Below are positions 3 through 48,028 of a stretch of DNA of 64,000 nucleotides, one piece after another. The notes beneath the pieces are model-generated. The model saw only the letters and a program-made list of their open reading frames with translations. It was not told the origin of the DNA and did no database searches. The stretch comes from a virus, in the IMG/VR virus record IMGVR_UViG_3300025133_006719, positions 1 to 64,000 of that record; one strand, 5' to 3'. Position numbers and translations under genes: made by a program. Every line of letters starts with the position of its first letter. Within the stretch, counting starts at the first letter, position 1.

Positions 3-3000
3 CAAAAAGAGATTTCTGCTTCTACTAACTTTGTTGATTATAGAGAGAGGAAGCGATACTTTGACACCGCGTTCAAAGGAGGGGAAAAAGCATATTACCT
101 TGAAAACGCAGGTCATCGAAGACCTTTTGGGTACTCTAACAAAACCAAAAGTATAGGTAGCATCCCTGCGAATGAAGCTATCTACTTTTTAGGTAGACCA
201 ATAGTATACGAAAAAATTACTATAAACGAGTCTAATATAATAAGCGCCAGTTCAGGAGATATAATCTATGTATTTGGCGATGGATCATTAAAGTACGATA
301 AGAAAACAATTTACGCTACAAATCAATACGTTGCCGTATCCAGTAGCTTAAACCCCGCCAACTCTCCTAAGTTGATCCCTGCTGGCGCTATAGATTACGG
401 GACAAAAAAAATAAATACCTTAGGCGATCCTTACGACCTATCCACCACAAGCACGGTTATATCCCCGATCAGGAATGTGTTTGGATATACAGATTTCAGA
501 GCAACTAATAAAGATGAGATGTCCGTAAATGGGGAAATAATTAAAAACGATGGTTATAACGCAACATACGTATACAGAAAACTAAACAGCTCCGAACTCA
601 TTGAAGCTGAAAAGAGGTATTATGTATACGGAATGGGAGATTATGTGGAGTATAATGGTTATAGATATTATCCAAGGGGCTTAGGTAGGGCTGACATAAT
701 AGTAAGCGGAGGGAGTGATGACACTATTACGTATACAGATAGCACTAAAACTATTAATACCGACAGCACAAGTAGCAGCAACGACTTTAGCAGCATTCAA
801 GATGGGGATGTCTTTTGGGCGTCCTATCAAAAAAATTATGGGGGTTTGAACGACTACGGAGAGCAGATAGTCGTACCAGTAAAGGTGTATAGCAAAACCG
901 ATAGTCAGAACATAGTTTTAACTACTGAGTTACCGGAGGGGGTAGATATGACATCTTACGACAATCAGGAGACGACGTTGATTTTAAACCCCTACTTCCA
1001 AATTTCAGTACCAAGGGACCAGCCCAACTATTCTTCAAGGGGAGCGTTGGGCAAGACATCATCCACAGGTAATTTCAATTTTGGCGGCACAGCTAAGACT
1101 TCAAGATACCTAGTTAAGAGAAACATCCTATATAAAAAGGGCGCTAGCTGCTGTATAGAGATTGAGAAGATCGAAGATGACGTCGTAAGGCATTCCTCTA
1201 AGACTTACGCTTCCAAGTATGGCCACTCTTCAAGCCAGAAGATTCCTATAGGGTTTGTCTACGCCGTTAAAGGTAGAGGAGAAATAATATACCCTGTATG
1301 GCAGGGGGATAAGTCTGGAGATAGTAGTTACAGCTTGGTTTACGGTACGGGGGCTACTGCTTGGTATAGTCACGATACCCTGAGCAAAACCTTTAGGGCC
1401 GGATCTGTTTTCTCAGGTATTGAATCCTCTCCCGGGGGAGGAAGTCCGGCTAAATACTATTGGAAGACCAAAGGCACAGAAAGAGTCCATAAGATATCCA
1501 ACAGCTACGCCAAGCTAACAGAAAAAATAAACTCAATGGATCAATTCCTAGACGTTGCCCCTTCCAAATATGGGATCGACTCTGGGGAAGTAAGATACGA
1601 TGGAAGAGAATATGAAGTTCTGTGGATAGGTTCAGATGGGTTAGTGCAAAAAGAAGCTGGCGAAGGAAGCATAGAATACAACGGAAAGACAATTCAAGTC
1701 GGAGAAACTTTTAAGCCCGTAAAGATAGGTGACAAAGTCGTTAGCAAATTCAAGGCATCTGATAAAGGCAAAATCATAGTAAGACCAAAAGAAGGCATCT
1801 TAAATAAAGCCCCAGTTGGAGGTTGGTCAAACGAGTGGTCAATGTTTATAAACACAACCCACCACCATCCTTCTAGGACTTCTATGTGGCACCACGACTA
1901 TTACGGAGACATATTGTCATTCCTTAATAATAGATGCCATATAATGTCAGAAGACTTTAAGTTAAGGAAGTACGGGCACCTTTTAGAGACGTTCTCCTAT
2001 GGCAAGAAGCCTGTTATAAGGTCGGAAGCTCCTCCGGGCTACCAGTTCCTAGAGGGAAGCAATGCTGACGCTGCTTGGTACTGGTTCGGTTTAGACGGGG
2101 CTCAGGCCAATAAATGGTATTATAGTTCGTGTCAGATATACAAACCTGACTACCAGATAAGCTCGACCAAACAAAAGGATATTATAGATATACTACAGGA
2201 TAATAATTTAACATTAGGCTCTGTAACTGATGAGTTTGCTGGGGGAGTTTGTCAAGGAGCTAGCGAGTTTAGTAGTGAATCCGTTCAGAATTCAAGTCAA
2301 TTAGATCAAACTTCATGCGCTCTCAAAGGTGGCCGATGGATAACCTTAAAAGATCAAGTTATAGTCACTTTAGACAGAAGACTACAACACACTGAAAACA
2401 CAGACTGGAATAATAATAGGGGTATAAGTGTTCTCGAGTTTGCTCAAGGATACGGAGAAGCATGTAAAATATTTTGGGACAATATTAAAGACCCTGCAAA
2501 AGATCCGTACAGAACCGATGAGAATGCCCTGTTAGAATATTTAATCAGAGAAAATTACAACACAGGAAAACAAAGAGGGTATTGCAGTGGCGTAACCTCC
2601 GAAAGTGGCGCAATACAAACTGAGGAGCTTTGTCTCTCCAGAGGAGGAGAGTGGGTATCGTCGGGGGTCGAAGACGAAAACGGAAACATCCAAAACGAAA
2701 TAGTAAAACTCCAATGTCCTAAGGCTAGGATAGGTGACGCTGCCCCAGACACTTTTATTTGGCAATTGCCGGATGATCCGTTTGGAGCTTGTGAGCCTAG
2801 ATTCTACTTTAGCAAACACGTTCCGTATGTGTACGATGACGATTCAGTTGACGAACCTTGGGTCAAGACTCCCGTTACGGTAGATCCATTTATCCAAATG
2901 GAAACCTATTTAAGAGGGTTCTGCGGAGGATTTATAGACAAGAAGTCTGACCCCATAGCAGATGAAATTACACAGTATTTAAGCAAGAGCGGGGAGATGA

Positions 3001-5654
3001 AGCTCATCAATCAGACCTGTGCGAAGTCAAAAGACTACGACTACCTCTTTGAGAACTTAGCGTTTCAGTCTCTGGATCAGGCCGGTAACTCCAAGTCGAT
3101 ATTTAAAGATTATGACAAAGTTATTATTGAGAGAGATCAAAATGCTGTAGTTGAAAGAAGGGTGGACGTTTCTGGTTTAAAGACTCGGATGGGCGGCAAA
3201 GGATGGATTATATTCAGAAAATATAATGAAAAAATAGATGGCGAAGAAGAAGGGGCTTATGTTAAACTTGGAAGCTCTCCTTCCTACAAAGGGGTAAGGG
3301 TTGGAGCTCTAGTTAAGTCAGATAGCCTAGATGCATTTGGAAATGCTGGCCCAGAACTTTCTGAGTTTCACGATATTTACACAATTCCGTTAAAATTTGG
3401 GGAAACAATAGGTACAATAGAAAAAAACTACTCAACTGTATACTATACCGTGGAAACTTCCAACTTTTTTGACGGAGATGTAAACGGTACATTTACTATG
3501 AGGGCGGTACTCAGCCCAGAGGGAGACTTATCGGTAATAAAACATTATCAAAATCAAGCTACAATATCATTTACAGCAGATGAGTCCGCTAAATATTATG
3601 CTGTCGAATTTAAAAAAGCGGTATTACCTCATGAAACAGAATGGAAAATATACGGAAACGAGATAGTACCTAGAAAAGCTTATCTAGAACAGAAACAATC
3701 AAACCCCAAAATAACTCCGGCAGATAGACCTCCCGCTAACTACTTTGATTTAGTTGACGTCGACCTGACTGACAACCTTGATGATGATCCAGCTTACGCA
3801 GGATTAAAGAAAGAATATTCATTAAGATTACGCCCATTCTATAAGCAACTTACTGGCGGAGTTTGTAGCGAGACAGGTAAGACGACAAAGATTTCATGCC
3901 TCCGGGCTGGTGGAACTTGGACCCCATTCTCCGCTCATACCTCTGGAAATTTCAAAGAATCAGATAAGACGAGGAAAGTGGATGCTATTATTAAAGGCTA
4001 TCCAAGAAGAATCGAATTCAAAGAAAGCGGAAGCCCGGCGTTAATAATGTCTTCTGAAAATGGCATATTTACATTTAGGATAAAGAACCTATTCCCGGTA
4101 GCTTTTAATACGAAAACAAACTATAACAACATAGAATTAGAGACCATTTATATCAACGGCTCCCCAACCACAGTTAAGAAGTTATATTACGATATAGAAT
4201 ATAAAATAAAATATAGCTATGAGAAAGCCGCGGAAGACGATACAACAAACATAAGAAGAGGAGAATGGCAGAACCTAAAAACTTACCGAGATGTAAAGAA
4301 GGGGCAAGAGATAATATGCGTAGATGATAAAACATACGAATTTGAAACCATTAATTATAGAGTTGTAAAACTTGTATCAAGACCGGGTGGGTCAAGATGG
4401 ATAAGCCCGCTAAACCTTATAGACGAATTAACTAACTATCCTGATGACACAAAAGGCTTTGGCCCTCTGCCTAATATAACCTTAAGAGCTTCAATATTTA
4501 ATCAATTTGCAAATTCAATTAACCTATTAAATGAAGCTAGGGTAGACCTGCCAATCACAGTTAGGTATAGAGACCATGTAAAATTTGTCGCCAAGCCTTG
4601 CAAGACTGCTCCGTATGCAGATATAAGCATAACTAGAGGTGTTGCCCTAGCTGGGCTTAATGTACCTGCGCCCACCTTGGGCACTTGGGCTAGGACTGAG
4701 TTCACCATGCACGGATTCACTGGCGGCGCGGCGATGCACGCGGATAGGTATGAATTCGTCGATATTGACTGGGGAGCTAATACAATTATGCAAGATGGTT
4801 GGGGCCGCGATAGAACCTATGTATCAGAATGGTATGAGTCTTATGGGCACACATATTTTCAAGCAAACAAACACTATGGATTCTTAGGGGAACCGTTCAT
4901 TGGAGGCCAAGGCTTTGTAGCTCCGTCGGGTGCATGGGGTGTTGGGGGACAGACTCAAGACGTTGAAATATCAATAACTGGTAACCAAATAGCCTTCAAG
5001 TACGCTGTTCCGAGAATGTTGAGGAGCCGAATCAAATCTGACAATTTAGTCCTTAATGGCAGAATGGACTATTACAATAAGTGGCATCCGGGGATGAGGC
5101 ATCTGACGACGGAGTATGGAGCTATAGATGGTTTCAGTCCGAGAGTGCCTACTGTTCAGGGCGTCCAAAGCTATAATAGTGAGTTAACAGGGAATGCCGA
5201 ACCCTTAGACCTTCCTTCTTACTGTGGAACAGGTGAAGGGCCTATCAAATGGTATTTCTTAAATATGTCTCAGAGACATGGCGGGGACCGATATGTTATA
5301 TTTGAGGATCAGGCGGAAGAGTACTCTTATTGTTGGGATATGAAGGGCACTTTCATGTTAAAAGCTCCAGAACTTCGTGGCAGCTACTCTGGAATAATCA
5401 CAATCCCAATGGGTATAGAATATCAAGACCACTGCGGGAAGGGCGGTAGCGTCAGTGCTTTAGGTTTTGCTACTAACGCTTCAACTGGGGACAGCAATCT
5501 TAGGGTCGAGATTCCGGTAGTGGATAAGCTACTCTCTCTTGCCCACTGGAAGTACAAAGAAGTGGAAAAAAAGCCAGTAGAAAAGACAAAAACAGCCAAT
5601 AAAGATAATATAATAAAGAAGGACGAGCCAGATGTTGGCCGCGGTTCAGGATAA
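3..5654 (+). CDS. Giant putative virion structural protein (tail/baseplate/fibre-like), 5'-truncated by window edge
   Basis: Frame 3 is open from nt 3 to the stop at 5654 (>1880 aa; the track start at 372 is an internal TTG). G/S/T/Y-rich, with internal repeats YxVxGxGxIxYNG and GxC..CxxxGGxW. Confidence 0.6.
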   Translation, partial: QKEISASTNFVDYRERKRYFDTAFKGGEKAYYLENAGHRRPFGYSNKTKSIGSIPANEAIYFLGRPIVYEKITINESNIISASSGDIIYVFGDGSLKYDKKTIYATNQYVAVSSSLNPANSPKLIPAGAIDYGTKKINTLGDPYDLSTTSTVISPIRNVFGYTDFRATNKDEMSVNGEIIKNDGYNATYVYRKLNSSELIEAEKRYYVYGMGDYVEYNGYRYYPRGLGRADIIVSGGSDDTITYTDSTKTINTDSTSSSNDFSSIQDGDVFWASYQKNYGGLNDYGEQIVVPVKVYSKTDSQNIVLTTELPEGVDMTSYDNQETTLILNPYFQISVPRDQPNYSSRGALGKTSSTGNFNFGGTAKTSRYLVKRNILYKKGASCCIEIEKIEDDVVRHSSKTYASKYGHSSSQKIPIGFVYAVKGRGEIIYPVWQGDKSGDSSYSLVYGTGATAWYSHDTLSKTFRAGSVFSGIESSPGGGSPAKYYWKTKGTERVHKISNSYAKLTEKINSMDQFLDVAPSKYGIDSGEVRYDGREYEVLWIGSDGLVQKEAGEGSIEYNGKTIQVGETFKPVKIGDKVVSKFKASDKGKIIVRPKEGILNKAPVGGWSNEWSMFINTTHHHPSRTSMWHHDYYGDILSFLNNRCHIMSEDFKLRKYGHLLETFSYGKKPVIRSEAPPGYQFLEGSNADAAWYWFGLDGAQANKWYYSSCQIYKPDYQISSTKQKDIIDILQDNNLTLGSVTDEFAGGVCQGASEFSSESVQNSSQLDQTSCALKGGRWITLKDQVIVTLDRRLQHTENTDWNNNRGISVLEFAQGYGEACKIFWDNIKDPAKDPYRTDENALLEYLIRENYNTGKQRGYCSGVTSESGAIQTEELCLSRGGEWVSSGVEDENGNIQNEIVKLQCPKARIGDAAPDTFIWQLPDDPFGACEPRFYFSKHVPYVYDDDSVDEPWVKTPVTVDPFIQMETYLRGFCGGFIDKKSDPIADEITQYLSKSGEMKLINQTCAKSKDYDYLFENLAFQSLDQAGNSKSIFKDYDKVIIERDQNAVVERRVDVSGLKTRMGGKGWIIFRKYNEKIDGEEEGAYVKLGSSPSYKGVRVGALVKSDSLDAFGNAGPELSEFHDIYTIPLKFGETIGTIEKNYSTVYYTVETSNFFDGDVNGTFTMRAVLSPEGDLSVIKHYQNQATISFTADESAKYYAVEFKKAVLPHETEWKIYGNEIVPRKAYLEQKQSNPKITPADRPPANYFDLVDVDLTDNLDDDPAYAGLKKEYSLRLRPFYKQLTGGVCSETGKTTKISCLRAGGTWTPFSAHTSGNFKESDKTRKVDAIIKGYPRRIEFKESGSPALIMSSENGIFTFRIKNLFPVAFNTKTNYNNIELETIYINGSPTTVKKLYYDIEYKIKYSYEKAAEDDTTNIRRGEWQNLKTYRDVKKGQEIICVDDKTYEFETINYRVVKLVSRPGGSRWISPLNLIDELTNYPDDTKGFGPLPNITLRASIFNQFANSINLLNEARVDLPITVRYRDHVKFVAKPCKTAPYADISITRGVALAGLNVPAPTLGTWARTEFTMHGFTGGAAMHADRYEFVDIDWGANTIMQDGWGRDRTYVSEWYESYGHTYFQANKHYGFLGEPFIGGQGFVAPSGAWGVGGQTQDVEISITGNQIAFKYAVPRMLRSRIKSDNLVLNGRMDYYNKWHPGMRHLTTEYGAIDGFSPRVPTVQGVQSYNSELTGNAEPLDLPSYCGTGEGPIKWYFLNMSQRHGGDRYVIFEDQAEEYSYCWDMKGTFMLKAPELRGSYSGIITIPMGIEYQDHCGKGGSVSALGFATNASTGDSNLRVEIPVVDKLLSLAHWKYKEVEKKPVEKTKTANKDNIIKKDEPDVGRGSG

Positions 5655-11842: not shown

Positions 11843-11863
11843 GCAAAAAGTTATTATTATGGT

Positions 11864-12265
11864 ATGACTGGATTAGAGGCAACTTCAGAACTTTTTAAAT
11901 TCTTTAGTGAAAATGATTATTTTGAGATGGGGGAGCATTTTAGTAGCGTTATTCTCATCTCTGATAAAAGGGAGATTGAAGAAGCCTGTTTGGATCTGGG
12001 GTTAGCGGAGCTGGGGGAAATGGGAGTCATCTCCAAAATAACAAAAAAGGATAAGGATTATTGGATTCTGAAGAAACCTTTGACGCACTACGATCAGAAG
12101 GTAGAACTTGGTGCAAGTACCGCTATGGGGGTATCAGTTGTTCTTAATGAAATATGTGATCAGTTAGAAAACACTGAAGATAAGTGTGATCCATTGAGTA
12201 TTAGTGATAGAGATATAAACAACCTTGTATCTGTTGCGAGCAAAATGATTGAAAAAAAGGGTTGA
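11864..12265 (+). CDS. Hypothetical protein
   Basis: ORF divergent from dCMP deaminase; ATG 11864 preferred. Confidence 0.65.
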   Translation: MTGLEATSELFKFFSENDYFEMGEHFSSVILISDKREIEEACLDLGLAELGEMGVISKITKKDKDYWILKKPLTHYDQKVELGASTAMGVSVVLNEICDQLENTEDKCDPLSISDRDINNLVSVASKMIEKKG

Positions 12266-12291
12266 CAAATTTGCCCCGCGATGAGAGAAAG
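12262..12291 (+). promoter_or_regulatory. TTGAC-N7-CCCC promoter upstream of non-coding region
   Basis: TTGACAAATTTGCCCCG; -10 element poor. Confidence 0.55.
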
Positions 12292-12299
12292 GTTTCTGT

Positions 12300-12690
12300 T
12301 CTTTGAGTAGCGGTAAATAGCGTGTTTAGGGGAAACCTAAACAAAACACATTAGAGACCTCAGGTCCGTAAAAAGACGCCAGACGAATAAGCTTAATAAG
12401 CTTAGAGTTATTTCGGAAAAACGCGGCTTCATAGTCTGGAAAAGCAAGTATACCAATTAGTGAAAGGGGGAAAGCTGACAGTCCTAAAAAAAGTCCTACC
12501 GCTTAAGCAAAGACATACATAGCAATCCTTGGTTGCGAGCTAGGCTGAAAAGAAATGGCCGATGCGCTGGACTGAAGTGGGTAGGGATTGATTACTAATT
12601 AGGGTTAAACTCCCAAGAGGACTGTTGTGCCCAATAGTTCTGGAGGGAAAAGCTTCCAGTCGTTTTCGTCTCTAGCGCTTCTTCTTCTTT
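12300..12690 (+). ncRNA. Candidate structured non-coding RNA of unknown class
   Basis: About 500 nt gap with no ORF of 60 aa or more; promoter motif upstream; hairpins 12323-12343, 12379-12439, 12388-12404, 12640-12659; T-rich tail. Confidence 0.45.
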
Positions 12691-12763
12691 GTATATTCTT
12701 TGTATGTACAATCTTTCGTCATGAATTAGTTCTTATTTAGTTTCGTTTATTATCTAAGGGCAT

Positions 12764-13378
12764 ATGCAAGTCATTGATGATAAACATCTTATAAAGAAAG
12801 TTAAGGAATATTCATGCAGCCCTAGCTTAGTAGAGTTAATCTCTCGTCACTCTGGTATTTGTTATAAAATATTTTCCAAATTCATTAATTCTTTAGAGGA
12901 TAGAGGTAGGGATTACAACGAACTGGTATCAAATAAGGATTATTTTATTTACTTAGCTGTTATGTCTTTTAAAGAAGACAGGAATACATTGTTTTCGACT
13001 TGGCTGGGTAATTACATAAGATATAAATGTTTAGACTTCTTGAATGAAAACAAGCTAAACTATGTCCACCAGATAGACGAGAATCAAAAGAATAATTTTA
13101 TAAATAATAACTCTTCTTTTAAATACAATGAATCCAAAGCATTAAAAGATACCAAAGACTCTCTCTTTGATTTGTTATCACAGTTAAAAGACAGCAGGGT
13201 TAGAAGAGTGTACCATATGAGATATTTTACAAACCACCCCAAAATGACATGGAAAAAGATAGGGGAGAATATGGGTGTTAGCGCTCAAACCGCCATAAAC
13301 CTCCACGAAAAAGGTAAAAAAATAATAGTTTCCAGACTTTACAAAAAAAAGCTTGACGCACCTGCCCCGACGTGTTAA
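12764..13378 (+). CDS. Phage sigma-70 family sigma factor
   Basis: ELISRHSG, F..DRNT.FSTWL.N.IR region 2; MTWKKIGENMGVSAQT region-4 HTH. Confidence 0.8.
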   Translation: MQVIDDKHLIKKVKEYSCSPSLVELISRHSGICYKIFSKFINSLEDRGRDYNELVSNKDYFIYLAVMSFKEDRNTLFSTWLGNYIRYKCLDFLNENKLNYVHQIDENQKNNFINNNSSFKYNESKALKDTKDSLFDLLSQLKDSRVRRVYHMRYFTNHPKMTWKKIGENMGVSAQTAINLHEKGKKIIVSRLYKKKLDAPAPTC

Positions 13379-47951: not shown

Positions 47952-48028
47952 GCCCCGATAGCTCAATTGGACAGAGCATCTGCCTTCTAAGCAGAGGGTT
48001 TCTGGTTCGAGTCCAGATCGGGGTACCA
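47952..48028 (+). tRNA. tRNA-Arg (anticodon UCU)
   Basis: GCCCCGA acceptor stem, D-arm, TCTGC-CT-TCT-AA-GCAGA, GGTTCGAGTCC, encoded CCA. Confidence 0.96.

Follow-up and report, generated by a model that had tools for sequence, protein, structure and literature searches.

The DNA analysed here (the window) comprises positions 1 to 64,000 of the IMG/VR virus record IMGVR_UViG_3300025133_006719, which is 79.3 kb long and whose completeness is estimated at ~52%. Between the stop codon of a gene here named c0 and the start of a gene for a sigma-70 family factor (hereafter sigma) there is a gap of 498 nucleotides (nt), which a preliminary description of this DNA had taken for a non-coding element. 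As that description held, no open reading frame (ORF) of more than 47 amino acids (aa) exists in 12266-12763. A small ORF starting at ATG 12281 was discarded, as it has 9 codons, lies 5' of the likely transcription start and is not conserved. Our comparative analysis shows that positions 12262-12668 constitute a predicted gene for a structured RNA of ~370 nt, encoded on the + strand and provided with its own promoter. By its position and distribution, the putative RNA gene forms an accessory early cassette located between c0 and the genes of a deoxynucleoside monophosphate (dNMP) kinase and sigma.

A total of 80 IMG/VR loci were gathered through the alignment of sigma homologues, whose proteins are 35-43% identical to that of the window; close metagenome relatives of the window sigma are 83-90% identical. 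When these 80 loci were searched with the bare gap sequence (nhmmer), six matches were obtained with E-values of 1e-19 to 1e-28, all of them on the same strand and upstream of sigma. In loci with sigmas of such low identity, the nhmmer E-values of this RNA, hereafter type A, ranged from 1e-19 to 1e-88. In addition, a search with a 24-nt pattern conserved in the 3' domain yielded contigs from IMG/VR (16) and from metagenomes (30). The whole element is present in 24 of these 30 metagenome contigs, the rest being pattern-only matches or copies cut at contig ends. After de-duplication, type A amounts to 29 distinct sequences plus the window. The RNA core is ~70% identical, against the 35-43% of the sigma proteins, and at the nucleotide level the RNA is conserved far above the neighbouring genes. 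No conserved ORF was found in it, the longest stop-free stretch in the core ranging between 33 and 68 aa.

The type A contigs come from marine water, according to the sample names and one listed RNA run. No true copy of the RNA was found in 185,579 bacterial and archaeal genomes; seven pattern matches in them were rejected as chance, because only the pattern itself matches. Neither blastn of the region nor tblastn of sigma gave any match in cultured-phage databases, and the DnaE-like polymerase of this phage has only relatives of less than 30% identity. The phage belongs to an abundant, uncultured marine group with no cultured relative. Two RNA runs are uninformative on the expression or the ends of the RNA: an oligo-dT run (contigs only) covers part of sigma and not the RNA, and a second run, of unclear type, has pieces of a relative.

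The evidence for a conserved fold comes from alignment A5, which contains 28 sequences and corresponds to 12300-12603 of the window. RNAalifold predicted 40 pairs, and double compensatory changes support 27 of these. In an explicit model of 45 pairs, 98.0% of the cells form standard pairs, vs. 27-44% after shifting the 3' partners by 1-3 columns, and double compensatory changes occur at 27/45 pairs. The covariation score is 0.52 vs. at most 0.16, and none of 500 shuffles reaches the observed values. G-U pairs are frequent, one pair being UG in all 28 sequences, and this abundance indicates that the + strand RNA is the functional molecule and the target of selection. The features of the predicted fold, together with those of its flanks, are provided in Table 1.

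Table 1. Predicted features of the RNA gene and its flanking genes (window positions).
Feature	Position	Strand	Remarks
c0, upstream gene	11861..12265 (alternative start 11828)	+	~134-145 aa, no family
Promoter, sigma70-type	12262..12290	+	-35 TTGACA 12262-12267; 17-nt spacer with GCCCC 12273-12277; weak -10 GAGAAA 12285-12290
5' leader motif TGTTCTTTGA	12297..12306	+	Sole exact copy in the window; conserved in most homologues
P1, 5' strand GCGGTA	12310..12315	+	Pairs with 12497-12502; closes the 5' domain
P2 hairpin	12323..12343	+	Position fixed, sequence variable
Near-invariant unpaired block TTAGAGACC.CAGG.CCGTAAAAAGAC	12351..12377	+	AAGAGACC also retained in type D
P3	CCAGAC 12379-12384 with GTCTGG 12434-12439	+	Encloses P3a and P3b
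P3a hairpin	12388-12404	+	Loop TTAATAA / UAAUAA
P3b hairpin	12405-12429	+	Conserved TATTTCGG.AAAA.GCGGC
Repeat copy 1, purine-rich, ends CAGUC	12467..12483	+	GGGAAAGCTGACAGTC
Pseudoknot	AGTCC 12492..12496 with GGACT 12569-12573	+	Covaries between type A and type D
P1, 3' strand TACCGC	12497..12502	+	Covariation
3' domain, long irregular hairpin	12523..12590	+	CAATCCTTG 12523-12531 with TAGGGATTG 12582-12590; inner GGCT/GGCC
3' extension	12591..12639	+	Small hairpin 12602-12614 (variable); conserved AAGAGGACTGT 12615-12625
Terminator-like hairpin CTGGAGG/CTTCCAG + TCGTTTTCGT	12640..12669	+	Overlaps repeat copy 2 (12645-12661)
Sigma-70 family factor, downstream gene	12764..13378	+	204 aa; phrog_36; homologues carry PF04542

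Four pairs of P1 are invariant (GC, CG, GC, GC) and the two inner ones covary (UA/GC/CG and GC/AU). At the site of P2, 27 of the 28 sequences have a hairpin of 5-9 base pairs with differing stems, and only locus L026 lacks it. The P3 domain (helices 3-6) is 98-100% paired, with double changes at 14 of its 16 pairs. Taken alone, the 3' domain has 98.3% of its cells paired, vs. 22-44% in the slid controls, and 11 pairs with double changes. An 11-nt internal loop of the 3' hairpin carries the strand GGACT, through which a predicted pseudoknot ties this loop to the base of P1. The RNA also contains ~75 invariant nucleotides, mostly unpaired.

In type A the pseudoknot is essentially invariant, with a single C-to-U change that keeps the pairing as U-G. 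Its covariation becomes apparent with a second form of the RNA, type D, present at three sigma loci (L070, L075, and L080) in a gap of ~400 nt whose sequence is different in appearance. There, the pseudoknot reads AGUUCUA/UAGAACU (UGGAACU in L070), which is a compensated form of AGUCC/GGACU. Type D retains AAGAGACC of the near-invariant block, GCGGC and AGCUAGGCU, and its helices are those of type A, built from other sequences. With R2, a covariance model made from the P3 domain, type D was detected at E-values of 1e-6 to 1e-4 with all three helices intact; run without filters, R2 found type D only, and did not link to types A and D two further RNA types of the same locus (B and C, described below). 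A model of the 3' domain (R1), run with default filters, gave no further homologues in 76 sources.

Five of the nine pairings listed in the preliminary description belong to this fold. Covariation in the 28 homologues backs CCAGAC/GTCTGG, the TAAGC/GCTTA portion of TAAGCTT/AAGCTTA, the long-range (A)GCGGTA/TACCGC(T), CAATCC/GGGATTG, and TGTTTAGG/CCTAAACA, the last in the form of a hairpin kept with several stem sequences. For ACAGTC/GACTGT the support is partial, since 83% of the cells are paired and three pairs show double changes. In contrast, TAGAGAC/GTCTCTA is a chance complement whose 3' partner is missing from the closest relatives, L102 and L118, and AATTAGT/ACTAATT, paired in 44% of the cells, finds no support beyond the lineage of the window. 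The hairpin CTGGAGG/CTTCCAG, after which TCGTTTTC comes, is only a terminator-like hairpin specific to this lineage. Of the checks proposed at that time, conservation and covariation in relatives gave strongly positive results, whereas the single-sequence folding energy was no better than that of dinucleotide shuffles (z = +0.24 for the + strand and +1.2 for the - strand), which is a weak criterion for A-rich multi-domain RNAs.

The promoter assigned to the RNA overlaps the c0 stop codon and had been recognized earlier by the motif TTGAC-N7-CCCC. This motif occurs exactly ten times in the window, and nine of the copies lie on the + strand directly 5' of genes. Eight of the nine remaining sites fit TTGACA-N16/17-TAnnnT, and for this reason we consider the motif a sigma70-type promoter whose spacer contains a conserved element. 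The -10 box of the copy at 12262 is unusually weak among them, and a generic promoter scan did not call it. All the homologues have a TTGAC/CTTGC -35 box plus a -10 box at the same distance 5' of P1 (~20 nt), with promoter scan scores of 12/12 for L075 and 11/12 for L059. A family of sigma70-type promoters with an invariant (G/T)CCCC exactly 7 nt past TTGAC was observed at window positions 12262, 13353, 26485, 30903, 39982, 46167, 47142, 57965, and 60342, in most cases from a few to ~40 nt before start codons, and the element is also found in the type C relative L079.

Transcription is predicted to start at ~12296-12299, just at the conserved 5' leader motif, of which most homologues retain GTTCTTTG. 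This motif, TGTTCTTTGA, may resemble the boxA of rRNA operons; a literature search by sequence string found no paper.

At the other end, the order of elements is also conserved: a variable hairpin, AG.GGAC.GCUAU and then a second purine-rich module ending in AGUC. In every lineage except that of the window, 13-17 nt of the first module are repeated exactly ~200 nt downstream. The repeated sequence is itself lineage-specific, ending in ...GGAUAAGCAGUCA in the L056 lineage and in ...GCUGAUAGUC in L115, a case of concerted evolution; in the window lineage the two copies have diverged. The GACTGT of the 3' extension may pair with the ACAGTC of repeat copy 1, and both repeat copies could pair with the intervening GGAC...CUAU strand, giving a two-state switch. 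The duplex energies of cognate and non-cognate combinations of the repeat with its S2 partner did not differ significantly (p ~0.10), and targets of the repeat were not enriched elsewhere in the window.

The RNA of the window likely ends at the terminator-like hairpin at 12640-12669. Intrinsic terminators are predicted after the RNA in three cases (window, L059, and L075), and clear second promoters lie downstream of it in L063 and L115. In several cases a -10-like element is seen by eye 6-10 nt before the start codon, so sigma could still be transcribed independently. Two further observations were made in this region. A tRNA-like sequence, recognized by eye, is located at ~2925-3000 of L063, ~15 nt past the 3' end of the RNA. 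The closest relatives of the window (L102 and L118) bear an insertion of ~90 nt with two GC-rich hairpins between the terminator-like hairpin and sigma, which is absent in the window.

The gene order around the RNA is conserved: deoxycytidine monophosphate deaminase (- strand), c0 (+ strand), RNA, dNMP kinase in some loci, sigma, a DUF736-like gene and, in some loci, a glycosyltransferase. This block is present in nearly all the 80 sigma loci, and in ~50 of them it leaves no room for an RNA. In loci without RNA, c0 ends with a CTTGAC-N17-TATAAT promoter, and ~7-10 nt separate it from the start codon of the kinase. The RNA is therefore an accessory element inserted immediately after this promoter. 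The cassette is moron-like, in that it has its own promoter, ends in a terminator in some lineages and is present or absent at one fixed locus. In the RNA-free loci (L002-L015, L040, and others) the -10 box lies ~7-10 nt before the dNMP kinase ATG, which implies leaderless or near-leaderless mRNAs. Concerning the gene that follows sigma, the DUF736-like protein (a weak match, ~100 aa, window 13372/13387-13686) is found in this position in 78 of the 80 related loci and may be a partner of the phage sigma or an anti-sigma.

Other loci carry in the same slot different ORF-free stretches of ~450 nt with their own TTGACA promoters. Type B is an RNA of ~430 nt after c0 and before dNMP kinase, with its own promoter, in at least nine loci (L003 at 2839-3322, L021, L013, L017, L018, L045, L077, and L081, with L016 and L031 on the other strand). 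It shows double compensatory changes at 25 of 39 predicted pairs and a strong terminator (C5/G5) bordered by a direct repeat that is specific to the lineage. Type C is found in three loci (L069 at 2506-2977, L076 at 2555-2968, and L079 at 2507-2974), measures ~450 nt and has TTGACA promoters, as does the ORF-free stretch of similar length in the singleton L043 (2829-3301). Both type C and L043 contain repeated AGGGAAAAG modules, and one of the promoters has the GCCCC spacer element. No Rfam match was obtained for these other types at the gathering threshold, nor at E<=1 for four representative loci.

The same virus record has a second ORF-free stretch, of ~650 nt, at ~75.7-76.4 kb (L135, 11745-12410). 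It has a TTGACA..GCCCC..TAAGAT promoter and opens with the 5' leader motif of the RNA, here TTGTTCTTTGAAAA. Toward the 3' end the sequence resembles a T-arm with CACCA, after which comes T8. No Rfam or ARAGORN match was found for this stretch. It was considered as a paralogue of the 12.3-kb RNA and rejected, as the two are not homologous.

Considering all these data, we tentatively favor the view, held at somewhat less than even odds, that this is a stand-alone early gene whose product would act as an RNA in trans on a conserved host component. The RNA would be transcribed from its own early sigma70-type promoter as a stand-alone product, the boxA-like 5' motif would protect this untranslated transcript from premature termination, and the pseudoknotted core, itself conserved, would bind some host macromolecule of high conservation. 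The transcription machinery is our first guess for the target, given the fixed linkage of the RNA to the phage sigma gene. A trans-acting RNA is the likeliest explanation in view of its own promoter, the terminators of some lineages, the second promoters, the presence/absence polymorphism and, in one lineage, the adjoining tRNA-like sequence. The many invariant unpaired bases and a conservation far above that of the neighbouring proteins lead to the same preference. Several points weigh on the other side. The proposed target is a guess that comes from gene linkage only; c0 is also present in loci without RNA and no partner protein is linked to the RNA; the L056-type lineage, the largest with 11 sequences, has no terminator, so that in it the RNA has to share a transcript with the kinase gene; and between the terminator and sigma of the window, L059, and L075 no strong promoter is present.

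This last arrangement (promoter, RNA, terminator and, after 9 to 95 nt, sigma, in three lineages) fits a cis-acting leader that sets the read-through of downstream terminators into sigma and the long rightward operon. Such a leader could work by processive antitermination of the put-like or boxA/Nus type, or as a ligand- or protein-sensing attenuator. The structured leader of sigma already put forward in the preliminary description survives in this form as the main rival, which we regard as less likely. The RNA is always co-oriented with, and directly upstream of, dNMP kinase or sigma, almost all genes between 11.8 and 64 kb are co-directional, and in RNA-free relatives the same promoter drives the operon directly; the boxA-like motif and the two identical strands ~200 nt apart, which could compete for one partner, can be read in the same sense. 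However, clear separate promoters follow the RNA in L063, L115, and the type B locus L013, and in the window and L059 weak -10 elements suiting leaderless mRNAs were seen by eye before sigma. The lack of a terminator in the largest lineage and the non-significant test of cognate repeat-partner pairing also speak against a leader, and an RNA of ~370 nt with ~75 invariant bases is far more complex than known antitermination RNAs.

The remaining explanations concern the RNA itself. Its invariant unpaired nucleotides and pseudoknotted core would suit a self-processing RNA or ribozyme in which the repeated ...AGUC motifs mark the sites of cleavage or processing, so that the operon transcript would give rise to one or two stable RNAs. 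AGUC terminates the repeat copies both internally and at the 3' boundary, a terminator is missing from many lineages, and in L063 the tRNA-like sequence seen by eye directly follows the RNA. Nevertheless, no Rfam ribozyme family matched and the copies of the window lineage have diverged, which makes this option improbable. A role as a decoy in anti-defence or host takeover, in which the RNA would imitate or capture some RNA-binding defence or housekeeping factor of the host, is quite improbable. That the RNA is the first product of an early promoter, that its presence is polymorphic and that at least three unrelated-looking structured RNA types share the same early locus would agree with a decoy, all of this being contextual evidence, but no defence-related neighbour appears in the Pfam/PHROG-annotated context and a locus in a fast arms race would not be expected to keep its sequence so strongly. 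We judge it very improbable that the RNA is a strongly diverged representative of a known class (RNase P-like, group I/II intron fragment, tmRNA-like or GOLLD/ROOL-like) missed by covariance models. Large size and a phage origin are shared with GOLLD and ROOL, and AAAGUCC...GGACU loosely recalls the P4 helix of RNase P; yet type A has no Rfam match at E<=10, ARAGORN is negative and the helix topology (order P1, pseudoknot, 3' hairpin) does not fit those classes. Finally, a replication origin, also suggested in the preliminary description, a primer transcript or a set of functionless chance complements is scarcely credible. The divergent gene junction, the two direct repeats and the folding energy might suggest it, but compensatory changes with G-U pairs reveal selection on an RNA fold of the + strand, and this covariation largely refutes it. 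Moreover, neither GC- nor AT-skew shows an inflection beyond the effect of gene orientation, the repeats are only two and ~200 nt apart, and conservation at the nucleotide level is much higher than in the neighbouring genes.

To our knowledge, large and highly conserved structured RNAs are rare, and nearly all those characterized (RNase P, tmRNA, group I/II introns, riboswitches) revealed new biochemistry. A bolder and doubtful proposal is that this new class of large phage RNA reprograms the host RNA polymerase at the start of infection, either through terminator resistance in cis or through sequestration of the sigma70 holoenzyme in trans. In that case, the polymerase would become terminator-resistant via a giant put-like or boxA-dependent element, or its sequestration would favor the neighbouring phage sigma, and the RNA would be one of several unrelated structured RNAs (A/D, B, C) sharing an early locus in a widespread group of uncultured marine phages. 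Located at the head of the early region beside a phage sigma, the RNA could reveal how host transcription is taken over or timed. The ~30 natural variants, the covariation, the pseudoknot and the ~75 invariant bases are directly usable for structure work and biochemical screens, and with its understanding a new RNA class would enter the databases.

With respect to known RNAs, the Rfam 15 scan of the whole window at the gathering threshold gave only one tRNA, at 47952, which ARAGORN identified as tRNA-Arg and as the only tRNA or tmRNA. For 12150-12850 at E<=10, Rfam returned four noise matches, all with E>4. The families compared include GOLLD, ROOL, HEARO, RNase P, tmRNA, 6S, group I/II introns, riboswitches, and small ribozymes. 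The suggestion of the preliminary description that this is a pseudoknotted RNA of no recognized class is therefore sustained by the absence of Rfam matches, the strong covariation and the pseudoknot that covaries between types A and D. This RNA family (types A and D) has been seen only in contigs of uncultured marine phages, and no described family matched it. In the full-text literature no description of the RNA was found, the motif strings occurring only as unrelated primers. The phage csRNA catalogue built from IMG/VR contains only motifs of 29-151 nt (Fremin et al., 2023), and short fragments of the ~370-nt RNA may already be among these candidates.

Several characterized systems share some traits with this RNA. 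The dCas12f-sigmaE guide RNAs are non-coding RNAs genetically linked to a sigma of the extracytoplasmic function (ECF)-like type that take part in RNA-guided transcription (PMC13472631). They resemble the present RNA in the linkage to sigma and in a lineage-specific short sequence at the 3' end (PMC13472631). A guide RNA of this kind was discarded, since no Cas12f- or TnpB-like gene was found among the neighbours in Pfam and PHROG scans. With 6S RNA, which binds the sigma70 holoenzyme, only the idea of an RNA linked to sigma-factor competition is shared; the fold predicted here lacks the architecture of one long hairpin opened by a central bubble, and no Rfam 6S match was obtained.

Riboswitch and attenuator leaders of the cobalamin or T-box type also consist of a conserved structured domain, and in three lineages the present RNA is likewise followed by an intrinsic terminator before the next gene; the order promoter, RNA, intrinsic terminator and ORF on one strand is found in the window, L059, and L075. 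Unlike such leaders, in some lineages it has separate promoters before the downstream gene, and it exceeds any riboswitch aptamer in size. The put sites of HK022 and the boxA sites of lambda and rrn operons are similar in that they are promoter-proximal RNAs followed by terminators and a long co-directional operon, and perhaps also in the boxA-like 5' motif. The put site is a two-stem RNA of ~70 nt. The present RNA is five times larger, with a multi-domain fold of ~370 nt, and was not classed as put.

GOLLD and ROOL, like the RNA described here, are large RNAs encoded by phages, with multiple helices and pseudoknots, and are rich in conserved unpaired bases. They are stand-alone genes of phages and prophages, sometimes located near tRNAs, and their function is unexplained. 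The present RNA has no covariance-model similarity to them, is smaller (~370 nt) and belongs to uncultured marine phages, in which it has an early promoter and lies upstream of dNMP kinase and sigma.

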